Below are positions 1-16,817 of a DNA stretch of 21,152 nt, one piece after another. The notes under the pieces were generated by a model. The model did not search any database and had not been told where the DNA came from. It saw nothing but the letters and a program-made list of their open reading frames with translations. Made by a program: the position numbers and the translations under genes. Numbering within the stretch: position 1 is the first letter of the stretch; every line of letters starts with the position of its first letter. The stretch comes from Candidatus Baldrarchaeum yapensis (GTDB lineage Archaea > Asgardarchaeota > Baldrarchaeia > Baldrarchaeales > Baldrarchaeaceae): the NCBI GenBank assembly GCA_016840465.1, contig JAEOSH010000041.1, positions 1 to 21,152 of the forward strand, written 5' to 3'.

Positions 1-465
1 CTCTCGTGCGTTGGATGGAGTATAGGTCAGTGATGCAAGCCCCCGTTCCTCAAGAGCGAGCAGAAGATATCCCACCGCGAGCCATGTACTCTCCTTGGCG
101 TATGGTTGCTTTTTATCCGAAATCACTACTATGAGAAATGGAGCCTCCGTGAGGAACTCCTTCCGCCACGTGATTCCTCTCTCCCGCGCCCATTTTAGAA
201 ACCACTCCGGGAGAGATGTACTTTCATAGAATTCCCTCTCTGCTCTTTCGCAAACTTCTCTTATCCTTTGCTTTAGTTCCTTATCGCTTACAATTATGAA
301 TCTCCATGGTTGCCTATTGGCGCCGGAGGGTGCTTGTAGTGCGGCGGATATTGCGTATAACACATCTCTCAGGTCGACATCTCCGTCGCTGTACTTTCTT
401 ATGCTACGTCTACGTGTCGCCAGATCCAGAACCGTGGTTCCTCGTTCCATACCAGTACATTTCAC
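1..465 (-). CDS. Nitroreductase-superfamily flavoprotein, iodotyrosine deiodinase (IYD)-like; 3' end runs off the window
   Basis: Not in the ORF track. Manual translation from ATG 450 (alternative GTG 465, overlapping the upstream TGA as GTGA) is open to base 1: MERGTTVLDLATRRRSIRKY...APSGANRQPWRFIIV...EREFY...GITWRKEFLTEAP...GLASLTYTPSN. It has the FMN-binding RRSIR and PSGxNxQPW motifs plus IYD-type E-x3-Y, K and T positions. Confidence 0.85.
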   Translation of the reverse strand, partial: MKCTGMERGTTVLDLATRRRSIRKYSDGDVDLRDVLYAISAALQAPSGANRQPWRFIIVSDKELKQRIREVCERAEREFYESTSLPEWFLKWARERGITWRKEFLTEAPFLIVVISDKKQPYAKESTWLAVGYLLLALEERGLASLTYTPSNARE

Positions 466-1016
466 GCATCATCTTTAAACATTATGGGAGGGGTTTTCTT
501 CTCGTGGGAGCGAAGAATTTCAACGTATTTTTGCAACTCGCTTGCAATTTCCCCGATGAGGGCAACTATTGTGTCGCTATTACGCATAAACCTACATAAC
601 TCGGTATACAGTTTTCGAAGCACCGAGTCTACGTCTTCGCACATCTCGATGGAGTCTATTGACCTGAAAATGAGGCTTTTAACCTTTTTCTCAAGTTTGA
701 GAATAAGGGGTATGAACTCCCTGCTGAAGAGGGAAGCTATTGCGAAGATGCCCCATCGCTTCGACTCATTGAAGAATACATAACCGGCTATATCGTGCTC
801 CTGCATATCGAGGAAGGATATGTAGGGGAGTTTAGATAAAAGGGTTGAGCCATAGGACAGCCAGACCTTGACGCGAAGAATCTCGCACACGTTCGGAGGG
901 AGTGCACCCGAGGGATAGGTTGCGAGAAGTTCGGTTCCAGTCACCTGGTTCAGGCGCACAAACGCGACTCCCTTCACTATTCCACTCTTTTTGATACTTT
1001 TAGTCAAATTTTTCAC
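462..1016 (-). CDS. Longin/uDENN-like domain protein with a C-terminal amphipathic or coiled-coil helix
   Basis: 184 aa, GTG start with a GGTGA RBS (1021-1025). The N-terminal pattern VAFVRLNQVTGTELLATYP resembles uDENN/longin beta1-beta2 (F-x-x-x-x-GP-x-l-x-x-x-YP), followed by a helix, a three-strand hairpin and a helix. The CDS is likely real; the fold is an inference. Confidence 0.6.
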   Translation of the reverse strand: MKNLTKSIKKSGIVKGVAFVRLNQVTGTELLATYPSGALPPNVCEILRVKVWLSYGSTLLSKLPYISFLDMQEHDIAGYVFFNESKRWGIFAIASLFSREFIPLILKLEKKVKSLIFRSIDSIEMCEDVDSVLRKLYTELCRFMRNSDTIVALIGEIASELQKYVEILRSHEKKTPPIMFKDDA

Positions 1017-1289: not shown

Positions 1290-2408
1290 TTAACTCTTCG
1301 AGATCGTAATCCCCAGCTGGTACTGTTTCCTTGTAACACACATCTTGATAAAATTGCTACTGCTAGCAACAACGGATCCACCAACCCACGCGAGAATGTT
1401 CCTTTCCGGAACTGCAAGTACCTCCACGCCGACGTCCTTCATCCCTCTCGCTTTCAGGTCCCTCTCCACCTCTCTCTCGATCCTCTCCTTGAAGCCGGGG
1501 AACATTGTGTTTCCGCCGCTCAGTATGATTCTGGATATGAGTTCCCCACGTATCGTGATGTCGCAGGACAGAATGCTCTCTATGAGGGCTTCGTGCACTC
1601 CGGGGAGATCCTTTCCGATAAGTGAGGGATCGAACATCACTTCCGGCGCCATAAACCTCTCTTGGGACAGAGCGATCTCCGCGCCATCGGAAGTGCTATG
1701 CACCACCTCCACGGATTTGTGGCACAACCTTATAAGCTTCAACTCCATGTCTGGCCTCACTGCCACATAGCAGTATTTTTCCTTGATCTCCTGAACCATC
1801 AGTCTTCCTTTGGTCCCGGAGATGTTATAACCCTGCCTTATGAGCAACCTCATAAGGTGCTCCGAGACATCGGTACCTCCCAGCTCGATTTTCATAACCG
1901 CGGGGTCAATGCAGTACCCCTTGTAAATCGGAGTTATTTGTGTCAGTCCCTCACCGGACTCCACCACAATGCCCGTATCGGCTCCAACGGCGCGCAACGA
2001 GAGGCTCACTTGAGGCATCATGCAGAGTGATGGGACGTTAAATACCTCGAACATTATCTCAAATATCCTTTCGCGGTTCTTCTCCGGGTTCTTAACTGGC
2101 TCTGTCAGCAACACGGGATGCTTTGAGGGATCTATCTTCAGCCCCCTCCTGAATACGAAGTCCCACAGCCTTATCATAGCATCCCAGTCGACGACAACCC
2201 CGCGCCTTATTGGATGCACCATACGTGCTCCTTTTGAGAGAAACGCCTCCCTCCCAACGAGGAAGTCCTGACCACCCTCCTCGGAATGCACCAATCCGAT
2301 CACTGTTGGTATAATGAGACGTGGGCGTGTATCGCCCGCAAACCCAGCTTTTAAAAGCCCCGTGCCATTGTCGATAACGACGGGTGTGGCGTGGGAAAAT
2401 TTCGTCAT
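1290..2408 (-). CDS. Eukaryote-like actin / actin-related protein (divergent Asgard-type actin paralog)
   Basis: 372 aa, collinear with actin: VVIDNGTGLLKAGFAGD, HPVLLTEP, IMFEVFNVP, TGIVVESGEG, IKEKYCYVA, ERFMAPEVMFDPSLIG, IILSGGNTMFPG, AWVGGS. Confidence 0.95.
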   Translation of the reverse strand: MTKFSHATPVVIDNGTGLLKAGFAGDTRPRLIIPTVIGLVHSEEGGQDFLVGREAFLSKGARMVHPIRRGVVVDWDAMIRLWDFVFRRGLKIDPSKHPVLLTEPVKNPEKNRERIFEIMFEVFNVPSLCMMPQVSLSLRAVGADTGIVVESGEGLTQITPIYKGYCIDPAVMKIELGGTDVSEHLMRLLIRQGYNISGTKGRLMVQEIKEKYCYVAVRPDMELKLIRLCHKSVEVVHSTSDGAEIALSQERFMAPEVMFDPSLIGKDLPGVHEALIESILSCDITIRGELISRIILSGGNTMFPGFKERIEREVERDLKARGMKDVGVEVLAVPERNILAWVGGSVVASSSNFIKMCVTRKQYQLGITISKS

Positions 2409-2610
2409 CAGTGTTACCTCTCATTTCTATAGTTGGAAGTGGAGCCAGGTCTACTCTATATTGCGGGGGAATAAAGTTTTGCGGTGCTGAGAATAGAGAG
2501 TATTACGTGAGTTGTGATGTTATTCTTAAAATTCGTAATAGAAGGGCATAAAAATTCCGTCACTTTGAAAAATTCGCATACTCCATGGCCCCTGCGCATT
2601 CGATCAGGTC

Positions 2611-10595: not shown

Positions 10596-10802
10596 CTACT
10601 CGTATACCTTTTCCTCCTCCAAATGGAATCCGACCATGTCCCTCTCAACGTCCCTTCTTTTCTCCCAGTAGGCCGGGGTCTAGCATCTCCCTGTACAGTT
10701 CGTGCTGTATTATTGCCCTCATGATCTCGTTGGTTCCGGTCCATATGAGCCCGAGCCTGCAGTCCCTCAGATACCTCTCTACTGGGTAGACGGTCGTGTA
10801 CC
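10596..10802 (-). pseudogene. Acyl-CoA dehydrogenase C-terminal remnant (frameshifted)
   Basis: An unlisted frame reads [40 protein letters not shown], the typical ACAD C-terminal helices. A one-base shift near 10655-10665 separates it from a plausible tail [19 protein letters not shown] (stop 10596-10598). Confidence 0.85.
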
Positions 10803-10842
10803 GTTCTTCCACTTGGTAGCATTCAGCAATTTATAGTAATTT

Positions 10843-10997
10843 TCAGCCACCAAGTGGGCCATCACGGCTCCCGGTCGCTCCGCCCCGCCTTACCCAGCCC
10901 ATCCCGTGCGGTCGCCCGCACGCTCACCGGACTGGTTCGGCGAAGCGGAACCCACCAGTACTCATCAACCTCGTCCTCTTCATCGGCCTCGACCTGA
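10843..10997 (-). ncRNA. Candidate extended box C/D-like structured RNA (about 155 nt, possibly extending to 10809)
   Basis: GC/G-rich island flanked by AT-rich DNA. C-like boxes CCGAUGA and UUGAUGA, hairpin 10959-10931, perfect hairpin GUGCGG-GCGA-CCGCAC (GNRA loop), D' CGGA / C' GUGAUGG K-loop, 12-nt spacer, D CUGA (10846-10843). BRE-TATA upstream. Confidence 0.55.
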
Positions 10998-11017
10998 CCG
11001 AATAATGGAGCGATACC

Positions 11018-11031
11018 ATTTAAACTTTTAC
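11018..11031 (-). promoter_or_regulatory. BRE-TATA promoter (GTAAAAG-TTTAAAT) upstream of the GC-rich RNA candidate
   Basis: TTTAAAT at 11024-11018 preceded by a purine-rich BRE-like segment. The spacing seen at other promoters in this window predicts a TSS near 10997. Confidence 0.55.
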
Positions 11032-11077
11032 GAAAATGTCTGAAAATTACTTAAACCGAAAACTGTTTCAGACCCCC

Positions 11078-11303
11078 CTATTTCTTCGATCGCGGCAACC
11101 TCGGCGACCCAGGTCGCTCCCCTTCCCCCGTACTCTGGTGGGAATCTCAAGCCCAGCAGTCTTCTTTCCGCGGCCATCTGTATAAATTCCTTTGGGAATT
11201 TTACTTCCTCGCGTTCCATTTTCCTTATAAGTTCGGGGTCGATCGACCTCGCAAACTCCTGCGCCTCTTCCTTTATCTTTCTCTCCTCAGGCGTTAGCAA
11301 CAC
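11078..11303 (-). pseudogene. Acyl-CoA dehydrogenase N-terminal remnant (truncated)
   Basis: LLTPEERKIKEEAQEFA...FPKEFIQMAAERRLLGLRFPPEYGGRG...AAIEEIG is the ACAD N-terminal domain. Similarity stops after EIG; the frame runs into AT-rich non-coding sequence and ends at 11028. Confidence 0.88.
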
Positions 11304-15956: not shown

Positions 15957-16817
15957 ATGGTGGAACCGATGGTGAGCACCGAGGAATTGAAGAGTGCATT
16001 TCTGGATCTGCTGGAGAAGGACAAGGAGTTCCGGTACGCGGTTGCGGCGCGGATAGGGCTACTGGAGATACTGCAACGTCTCGATGGGATAGAGAATGGT
16101 CAGAGGAAGATCTGGGAGGAGATAAAGAAGATCTGGGAAGAAATTCGGAAGCTTCGGGAGGAGCAGACGAAGATATGGCAGGAGAATCGGAAAATATGGC
16201 AGGAGATAGAGAAGCTAAGAAAGGAGCAGACGAGAACCTGGGAGGAGATTCGGAAGATATGGCAGGAAATCCAAAAGTTGCGGGAGGAGCAGACGAAGAT
16301 ATGGCAGGAGATCGAAAAGCTACGTGAGGGTCAGAACAGGATTTGGGAGGAGATTCGGAAGATATGGCAGGAAATAAGGAACATGCGTGAGTCGTTCGAG
16401 AAGAGGTTTGAACAGATAGATGCGAGGCTCAACAGGGTTGAGAGGACGCTGGAGAAGCTCACGCTGGAGATGGAGGAAGAGGCACGGGAGGTTGTCAGCT
16501 ACCGGCTCAGGAAAATGGGAATTCACGTGGATCTGGACGTTCTTAAGCTTCCCGATATGGAGATAAACCTCTACGGCGCGACGGAGAAGGTGTGTGTTAT
16601 CGGAGAGGCGAAGGTGAGGGCGGGCATAAGCGCGGTCCAAGAACTTGCGGATAAATTTGAGAGGCTGAAGAAGCTATACTCGAGCCTCCTCCGGGAGAAA
16701 ATAATACTGATTCTATACGTAACGACGGCGACTCCCGGTGCCATCGAGGAGGCCAAGAAGAGAGGTATCTGGATTTTGAAGATGACCAAAGATCTGACCC
16801 CACCTCCCAAGATTTGA
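15957..16817 (+). CDS. Archaeal heptad-repeat coiled-coil protein with C-terminal PD-(D/E)xK-like domain (DUF3782/DUF1626-like architecture)
   Basis: N-terminal LDLLEKDKEFRYAVA, 14 heptads, C-terminal MEINLYG...VIGEAKVR...ILILY. Confidence 0.75.
   Translation: MVEPMVSTEELKSAFLDLLEKDKEFRYAVAARIGLLEILQRLDGIENGQRKIWEEIKKIWEEIRKLREEQTKIWQENRKIWQEIEKLRKEQTRTWEEIRKIWQEIQKLREEQTKIWQEIEKLREGQNRIWEEIRKIWQEIRNMRESFEKRFEQIDARLNRVERTLEKLTLEMEEEAREVVSYRLRKMGIHVDLDVLKLPDMEINLYGATEKVCVIGEAKVRAGISAVQELADKFERLKKLYSSLLREKIILILYVTTATPGAIEEAKKRGIWILKMTKDLTPPPKI
16101..16394 (+). repeat. In-frame tandem 21-nt (heptad) repeat array, 14 units
   Basis: Units such as QTKIWQE, IRKIWQE and IEKLREE; GAAGATATGGCAGGA occurs four times. 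Confidence 0.9.

Follow-up and report, generated by a model that had tools for sequence, protein, structure and literature searches.

Lokiactin is among the most conserved proteins of the Asgard archaea and is regarded as a near relative of the actin ancestral to eukaryotes, and the extra actin-family genes of these archaea are usually taken as old lineages of actin-related proteins (Arps). The eukaryotic Arps are actin duplicates that keep the fold and the nucleotide pocket, with filament contacts and ATPase residues remodelled. Among the Asgard actins, lokiactin is the most conserved, further homologues cluster with Arps, and the family has a history of gains, losses and duplications (PMC9834061). 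We have analyzed a stretch of 21,152 nucleotides from Candidatus Baldrarchaeum yapensis (assembly GCA_016840465.1, contig JAEOSH010000041.1; hereafter, the window) that encodes a divergent actin, P0001, in a genome that encodes a canonical lokiactin (P0014) elsewhere. P0001 is a member of the actin family that descends from lokiactin and stands outside both the conservation that defines lokiactins and the Arp-like clades sampled here. It shows another route to an extra actin, that of a recent lineage-specific lokiactin duplicate freed from the strong constraint on actin, and its changes affect the very residues on which actin depends for assembling filaments, hydrolysing ATP and releasing phosphate.

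The P0001 open reading frame (ORF) runs through 372 codons without interruption. Its product matched the Pfam Actin family (PF00022) over residues 6-364 with 316.5 bits (cut-off 27) and solved actins with E-values of about 1e-93. The top match was 'HC1 actin' (9wc4), which presumably is the lokiactin of a cultured Hodarchaeales strain, HC1; eukaryotic actins came next. From an input alignment of 61 family members, AlphaFold2 gave a model with a mean pLDDT (predicted local distance difference test) of 93.8 and a pTM (predicted template modelling score) of 0.91, and Foldseek superposed it on actin structures with TM (template modelling) scores of 0.91-0.95 and a root-mean-square deviation of 1.4-2.3 Å. 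P0001 is therefore an actin (actin/Hsp70/sugar-kinase superfamily fold), and as modelled it keeps the four-subdomain actin architecture.

The host genome (2.27 Mb in 100 contigs, 96% complete) contains two actin genes. It represents the only species of its family, within an order whose four other genomes are the metagenome-assembled genomes (MAGs) deposited as 'Candidatus Baldrarchaeota'. The canonical copy P0014 (386 aa) is encoded on a separate contig (contig 7, L001:1480-2718), shares 61-73% identity with lokiactins across the phylum and scores 440 bits against Pfam Actin, versus 312 bits for P0001 in the genome. The statement of an earlier sequence-only reading of the window, that P0001 is not the conserved lokiactin, is thus correct, since the conserved copy is the one on the other contig. 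Both proteins also differ in charge: P0001 has an isoelectric point of 8.15 and a net charge of +2, and P0014 of 5.89 and -6. P0014 is itself odd at two positions that are invariant in 97 other actins (H173P and D288T), and the GC content at its third codon positions (GC3) is 0.48, whereas the other genes inspected have clearly higher values (0.54-0.69). A gelsolin-domain protein is encoded in this genome too; a Pfam Profilin match was not found in it, but this model is often too distant for Asgard profilins, so that absence is not implied.

To place P0001 we have used a maximum likelihood tree (LG+C20+F+G4) of 51 rows, made up of canonical Asgard actins, four eukaryotic actins and Arp-like paralogues of related genomes, without the named eukaryotic Arps. 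P0001 came out as the sister of the lokiactin of its own genome with a support of 99/99, and the pair grouped with other Baldrarchaeia actins, outside every Asgard Arp-like clade included. The end branches are very unequal, 1.77 substitutions per site for P0001 and 0.085 for P0014. The approximately unbiased (AU) test rejected the best tree constrained to a canonical actin clade without P0001 (delta log-likelihood 18.6, p 0.009). Long-branch attraction would draw P0001 away from such a short-branched sister, not toward it. The sequence-only reading had taken P0001 for an Arp-like paralogue; in the phylogenetic sense this is not supported, given the sister placement, the AU test and the rare states described below. 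By descent P0001 falls inside the lokiactin clade, which is the phylogenetic half of the outcome that the sequence-only reading itself had named as contradicting it, although on a branch about 20 times longer than that of its sister.

The two copies also share character states. There are 21 states common to P0001 and P0014 that are rare among 97 other actins, S303N being one of them, and H173P, T247E, D288T, P322K and I341V are among those absent from all 97. The segment KARGMKD of P0001 contains an RG insertion found only with Baldrarchaeia actins, and its K322 and D324 are found only with the own canonical copy; these features mark the descent of P0001 from the local lokiactin. P0001 has further states that are typical of Baldrarchaeia actins. 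Nothing nearer to P0001 than its own canonical copy (51% identity) was found in a word-indexed search of 5.8 billion proteins, nor in 40 related genomes, and an exhaustive phmmer search of 1.84 billion cluster representatives returned nothing more than 44% identical apart from P0001 itself. Three of the four same-order genomes have a single actin, in the fourth (84% complete) none was found, and a second copy was seen in none of them.

Thus, P0001 very probably arose by duplication of the lokiactin of its own lineage. The duplication took place within this family-level lineage, after its split from the described 'Baldrarchaeota' MAGs, and it is younger than the split of the two Baldrarchaeia families; as synonymous sites are saturated between the copies, it is nevertheless old in absolute terms. 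Since then P0014 stayed canonical and P0001 evolved about 20 times faster.

The changes in P0001 were read against 98 canonical actins (94 Asgard and 4 eukaryotic), or against the 97 that remain without the own canonical copy. Of 164 columns with a conservation of 95% or more across the 98 sequences, P0001 deviates at 64 (39%), a number far beyond chance. Y143R, R147A, T148D, D154E, V159L, H161Q, E167K, R177K, R183T, A204K, E205G and P243S all lie where the 97 sequences agree without exception, and H73 and D157, conserved in 99% and 95% of them, are R and E in P0001. Divergence is strongest in subdomains 2 and 4 (38% and 46% identity) and weakest in subdomains 1 and 3 (53% and 58%). The length differences from canonical actins are deletions in the D-loop, of one residue near position 65 and at the C-terminus, plus the Baldrarchaeia-wide RG insertion. 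All single observations of the sequence-only reading hold when P0001 is aligned to actins of eukaryotes and Asgard archaea: a D-loop with 13 residues where actin has 18, R for H73 in PIRRG (E72 is R as well), ESGEG for DSGDG, H161Q, R183T, an LGITISKS end without an HRKCF-like end, and the retention of D11, K18, Q137 and the hydrophobic plug. Its broader statement of a divergent paralogue with altered ATPase and filament contact residues holds as well, and residues of phosphate release are altered besides. Equally striking changes at invariant positions that it did not mention are Y143R, R147A, T148D, V159L, E167K, R177K, A204K, E205G and P243S. Its K336N is also present but has little weight, because Asgard actins vary at this position (M/R/Q/K) and the own canonical copy has Q.

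The roles of these residues have been taken from cryo-electron microscopy of eukaryotic F-actin. There, M44 of the neighbour's D-loop enters a pocket formed by L142, Y143, T148 and I165, while P38 and I64 hold its W-loop; polar pairs are formed by R39-D286, K61-E167, R62-D288 and D244-R290; the polymerisation cation is bound by T202, E205 and D286; and F375 lies in a pocket lined by P109, L110, I136, V139, A170, P172, I175 and, from the neighbour, V43 (10.1101/309534). The D-loop of P0001 has only 13 residues between its flanking glycines, whereas eukaryotic actin has 18 and P0014 has 20, and its deletions include P38, K/R39 and Y/H40 in the alignment. It was modelled as a tight hairpin (strands 37-41 and 47-51), where the control model of P0014 has a long low-confidence loop at 41-56. 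Position 202 is G (S/T in canonical actins), as is position 205. The C-terminus has neither the terminal helix nor the terminal aromatic residue of an H-R-(K)-C-F type end: past residue 364 the model falls to a pLDDT of about 55 and contains no helix, whereas that of P0014 has helices at 367-373 and 375-381. The pocket for the C-terminal residue carries P109V, L110K, I136P and V139S. Read in this way, the longitudinal contact set of P0001 appears changed throughout, i.e., at the D-loop, the M44 pocket, position 167, the cation site and the C-terminus with its pocket, and only D244, R290, D286, Y169 and F352 are left of it.

A second group of changes lies in the nucleotide site. In F-actin, Q137 positions the attacking water, which is activated by a second, bridging water that D154 and H161 keep in place; the ATPase of a Q137A/D154A/H161A triple mutant was not measurable (PMC9646518). 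The phosphate leaves through a 'backdoor' made of R177, N111, H73 and G74 in which R177 gates the release, and R183, in contact with D157, S14 and I71, shapes how the nucleotide site is charged (PMC10643162). In P0001, the water-activating pair D154/H161 is E/Q, with Q137 kept, and the phosphate-release network is changed by R177K, H73R and R183T together with D157E, with N111 and G74 kept. The phosphate-1 and adenosine motifs are intact, and phosphate-2 has ESGEG in place of DSGDG; most nucleotide-binding residues are retained, namely D11-N12-G13-T14-G15, K18, Q137, G156, G158, G182, K213, E214, G301-G302, M305 and F306, to which N111, G74 and the hydrophobic plug can be added.

A few states of P0001 resemble eukaryotic actins. 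Its residues 20-27 read KAGFAGD as in these proteins, whereas Asgard actins have KNGFAGE, and GGQD within the short D-loop resembles the eukaryotic GQKD. Both look like convergences.

We propose that P0001 might be an independently evolved actin that is Arp-like in function, a reading that we find the likeliest of those weighed here and to which we give chances just short of even. P0001 would still bind ATP or ADP, but hydrolysis and phosphate release would follow different kinetics, probably slower or uncoupled. It would no longer make the canonical contact of the D-loop with the cleft of the neighbour and would not be a regular protomer of the lokiactin filament. P0001 may thus act as an actin-fold nucleotide switch that does not polymerise or that assembles via another interface, and it is in the sense of not being an ordinary lokiactin protomer, and of having a retuned nucleotide handling, that it would be Arp-like. 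Within this proposal we prefer a protein that is monomeric or part of a complex over one that forms its own insulated polymer or binds lokiactin filaments. A prediction of a two-copy complex of P0001 (score 0.00, mark 0.42) bears neither way.

Several observations weigh against this proposal. Bacterial actins polymerise without a D-loop. P0001 keeps the hydrophobic plug, D244, R290, D286, Y169, F352 and a possible E113/R195 lateral pair, and with these filament-related features it may polymerise. The D-to-E and R-to-K changes are conservative, and catalysis may be largely intact. P0001 is carried by one species-level population only, whose contigs are all 99.9% identical; as the population is clonal, a within-species ratio of nonsynonymous to synonymous substitution rates (dN/dS) is not available and selection is not directly measurable. 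Against the sister, dS is saturated (proportion of synonymous differences, pS, 0.88; dN 0.42), so that dN/dS is uninformative here too. Finally, a tree without the own canonical copy leaves P0001 unresolved, basal to the canonical and eukaryotic group, and does not recover it with other Baldrarchaeia sequences; the sister placement rests on one sequence and the rare states shared with it. This behaviour is partly due to the convergence of P0001 on eukaryote-like states such as KAGFAGD, which probably pull it toward the eukaryotes in a tree that lacks its true sister.

Of the alternatives, we consider it unlikely, but well worth weighing, that P0001 forms its own filament insulated from lokiactin, both longitudinal faces having changed together in a way that avoids interference between the paralogues. 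The changes do lie on both sides of the contact (D-loop versus cleft, position 167, C-terminus): the shortened loop has gained E43 and E44 and the cleft side R143 and K167, and the lateral pair 113/195 is E/R, possibly a swapped salt bridge. The hydrophobic plug, D244-R290, D286, Y169 and F352 are retained, and divergent eukaryotic actin paralogues of like identity still polymerise (PMC12050087). However, the M44 pocket now holds the opposite charges R143 and D148, which might form a pair of their own and thereby fill it; the polymerisation cation has lost two of its three ligands (G at 202, E205G); P38 is missing along with residues 39-40; and there are changes in the catalytic pair by which hydrolysis is coupled to polymerisation.

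The sequence-only reading suggested that P0001 may be a nucleator, a capper or a non-polymerising subunit, with altered profilin-type binding. That P0001 regulates lokiactin filaments as a capper, a nucleation seed or a severing or terminating subunit appears distinctly improbable to us. Its lokiactin descent, the 53-58% identity of subdomains 1 and 3, and the retention of the plug and several contacts would suit such a role, Arp2/3 and Arp11 are precedents of actin-derived subunits that bind filament ends, and the gelsolin-domain protein of the genome points to a regulated actin system. Nevertheless, neither face seems suited to a canonical neighbour, the pointed-end one because of the D-loop and positions 202-207 and 241-243, and the barbed-end one because of positions 143, 148, 167 and 349 and the C-terminus; besides, no partner genes are linked to P0001, its flanking genes being mostly metabolic.

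P0001 might also be a redundant copy under relaxed selection, functionless and drifting to loss. Its presence in one species only, the alteration of 39% of the near-invariant actin columns and a codon usage that is that of an ordinary gene and unlike that of the canonical actin (GC3 of 0.64, like the neighbouring genes) are what such a copy would show. However, its frame is open at 49% amino-acid divergence from the sister copy and despite saturated dS, whereas stop codons arose in 2000 of 2000 simulations in which the canonical gene was substituted without constraint up to an equal divergence. Retention is also non-random: the identity to the sister is 64% at the columns at least 95% conserved and 36-45% at variable ones, with no loss of constraint at conserved sites. 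The nucleotide pocket keeps most of its side chains and all of its structural glycines and prolines, and no frameshift or internal stop was found. The confident predicted fold adds a weak argument, since the model leans on the family alignment. The GC3 shared with the neighbouring genes and a GAGGT ahead of the ATG also speak for maintenance. On account of the open frame, the non-random retention and the kept pocket, we conclude that P0001 is an intact copy that is very probably selectively maintained and not decaying, and give the relaxed copy very little chance.

A paralogue of Arp type that is older than the Asgard radiation and has since disappeared from all other lineages would account for the low identity to all lokiactins (41-51%) and for the basal position obtained without the own canonical copy, but it is hardly credible given the 99/99 sister placement beside a short branch, to which long-branch attraction would not lead, the AU test (p 0.009), the rare states and RG insertion shared with the own and Baldrarchaeia actins, and the lack of grouping with the Asgard Arp-like clades of the tree.

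If P0001 is functional, it is a natural experiment in making an Arp from an actin, showing which residues may change while the fold is kept, and P0001 and P0014 provide a matched derived/canonical pair from one cell for biochemistry. Should it turn out to be a spare copy under weak constraint, the finding would be an ordinary one.

Contigs of at least six samples or assemblies, independent of each other, carry the same P0001 gene with an unchanged gene order, which rules out an assembly artefact. Identity to the window is 99.9% in seven contigs that come from different samples, and in them the P0001 gene shows no difference, or one in a single contig (R28C in P0002). The public sequencing runs that hold the gene are DNA metagenomes labelled hydrothermal vent, sediment and seawater; no RNA run is listed among them. 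A mobile-element or viral origin is ruled out by the housekeeping neighbours, the matching GC3 and the fact that the sister is the host actin.

Upstream of P0001 are genes for a metallo-beta-lactamase-fold protein, an NAD-dependent epimerase, a TtuA-like ATP pyrophosphatase and an alcohol dehydrogenase. A GAGGT motif 7 nt ahead of the ATG and TATA-like A/T-rich boxes 45-70 nt upstream are putative expression signals (Table 1). Downstream, 273 bp with an A/T-rich box of their own and a GGTGA are followed by the genes for a 184-aa protein and a nitroreductase. The 184-aa protein has no Pfam match; a language-model and structure look-up found a resemblance (TM 0.6-0.7) to longin-type domains of the NPR2, C9orf72, folliculin and Avl9 clusters, and it is also near archaeal clusters in which a longin-type domain is fused to Arf/Ras GTPases. 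Its relatives in genomes of the Baldr and Jord types share 19-24% identity with it and do not adjoin actin, and thus no functional link to P0001 is claimed. Elsewhere in the window, a 286-aa ORF matched Pfam Syntaxin (PF00804) over residues 97-177 with 27.5 bits (cut-off 26.7; E-value 3e-6) and may be an Asgard syntaxin/SNARE-like coiled-coil protein, although it has weak coiled-coil matches to other families too. Two consecutive short genes, encoding an acyl-CoA dehydrogenase N-terminal domain (91 aa) and C-terminal domain (55 aa), look like the remains of one broken gene.

Table 1. Positions in the window of the P0001 gene, its altered segments and other features mentioned in the text
Feature	Position	Strand	Remarks
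Coding sequence of the divergent actin paralogue P0001	1290..2408	-	372 aa, complete, stop codon included; ORF and translation
Putative expression signals of the P0001 gene	2416..2480	-	Read from the sequence, inferred
Putative GAGGT motif	2416-2420	-	
Putative TATA-like A/T-rich boxes	2455-2480	-	
Shortened D-loop, residues 39-51, LVHSEEGGQDFLV	2256..2294	-	Alignments and model
Sensor (H) loop, PIRRG for PIEHG	2199..2213	-	E72R, H73R, G74 kept; alignments
Barbed-end cleft, residues 139-144 (RAVGAD)	1977..1994	-	Y143R, S145V, R147A, T148D; alignments
Phosphate-2/catalytic loop, ESGEGLTQ for DSGDGVTH	1938..1961	-	D154E, D157E, V159L, H161Q; alignments
Residues 173-179 (KIELGGT)	1872..1892	-	R177K, D179E, R183T; alignments
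Residues 319-325 (KARGMKD)	1434..1454	-	RG insertion only with Baldrarchaeia actins; K322 and D324 only with own canonical copy
C-terminus, residues 365-372 (LGITISKS)	1293..1316	-	Divergent and shortened; alignment and model
184-aa protein	462-1016	-	
Acyl-CoA dehydrogenase short genes	10645-11303	-	
286-aa ORF	15957-16817	+	

In comparison with the lokiactins, from which it descends, P0001 has the same fold and length class and keeps the phosphate-1 loop, Q137, the adenine-site glycines and the hydrophobic plug. However, lokiactins are 61-73% identical among themselves and P0001 is 41-51% identical to them, scoring 406 bits where they reach 585-665. Its D-loop is 7 residues shorter, it lacks the C-terminal helix, it is basic instead of acidic, and it does not show the conservation that defines the group, as Y143, D154, H161, R177 and R183 are all changed. 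Near-canonical lokiactin duplicates without such acceleration do exist elsewhere: the genome G027 ('Heimdallarchaeota' b1.sp2_bin.26) has two canonical-type lokiactins (L016/L057 and L136/L099) that score 597-612 bits to P0014. The sole actin found in three small genomes of two other Asgard families (L132, L133 and L134 in G013, G033 and G023) is also divergent, 39-40% identical to P0001 and with 385-455 bits to the canonical copy; these three group on long branches with the four eukaryotic actins (99/97), which may be an effect of long-branch attraction.

The Arp-like paralogues of Lokiarchaeia and Heimdallarchaeia are, like P0001, extra actin-family genes beside lokiactin, but they form their own well-supported clades and are 23-37% identical to it. 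When 300 genomes of the phylum were searched with the canonical copy, 2-4 hits per genome were common in Loki and Heimdall among the matches listed, whereas the related Baldrarchaeia genomes searched have no second one. In the literature, we have found no account of a paralogue that derives from lokiactin, is restricted to one species and combines these changes. A parallel among the divergent conventional-actin paralogues of eukaryotes is NAP1 of Chlamydomonas, a latrunculin-resistant substitute for conventional actin (PMC12050087). NAP1 is likewise a lineage-specific second actin strongly diverged from a conserved first copy; P0001 differs from it in being changed at the M44 pocket, the cation site, D154, H161, R177 and R183.

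With the eukaryotic Arps (Arp1-Arp11) the likeness is one of analogy only, that of a remodelled actin duplicate. P0001 has an independent origin in one archaeal lineage and lacks Arp-type insertions; it is its nested placement that sets it outside the eukaryotic Arps, the named Arps not being rows of the tree. It is possible rather than probable that in this lineage a lokiactin duplicate, having abandoned the canonical D-loop/cleft contact and the ATPase coupled to polymerisation, has independently repeated the transition from actin to Arp and yielded a new actin-fold nucleotide switch or filament regulator without a eukaryotic or Asgard counterpart.

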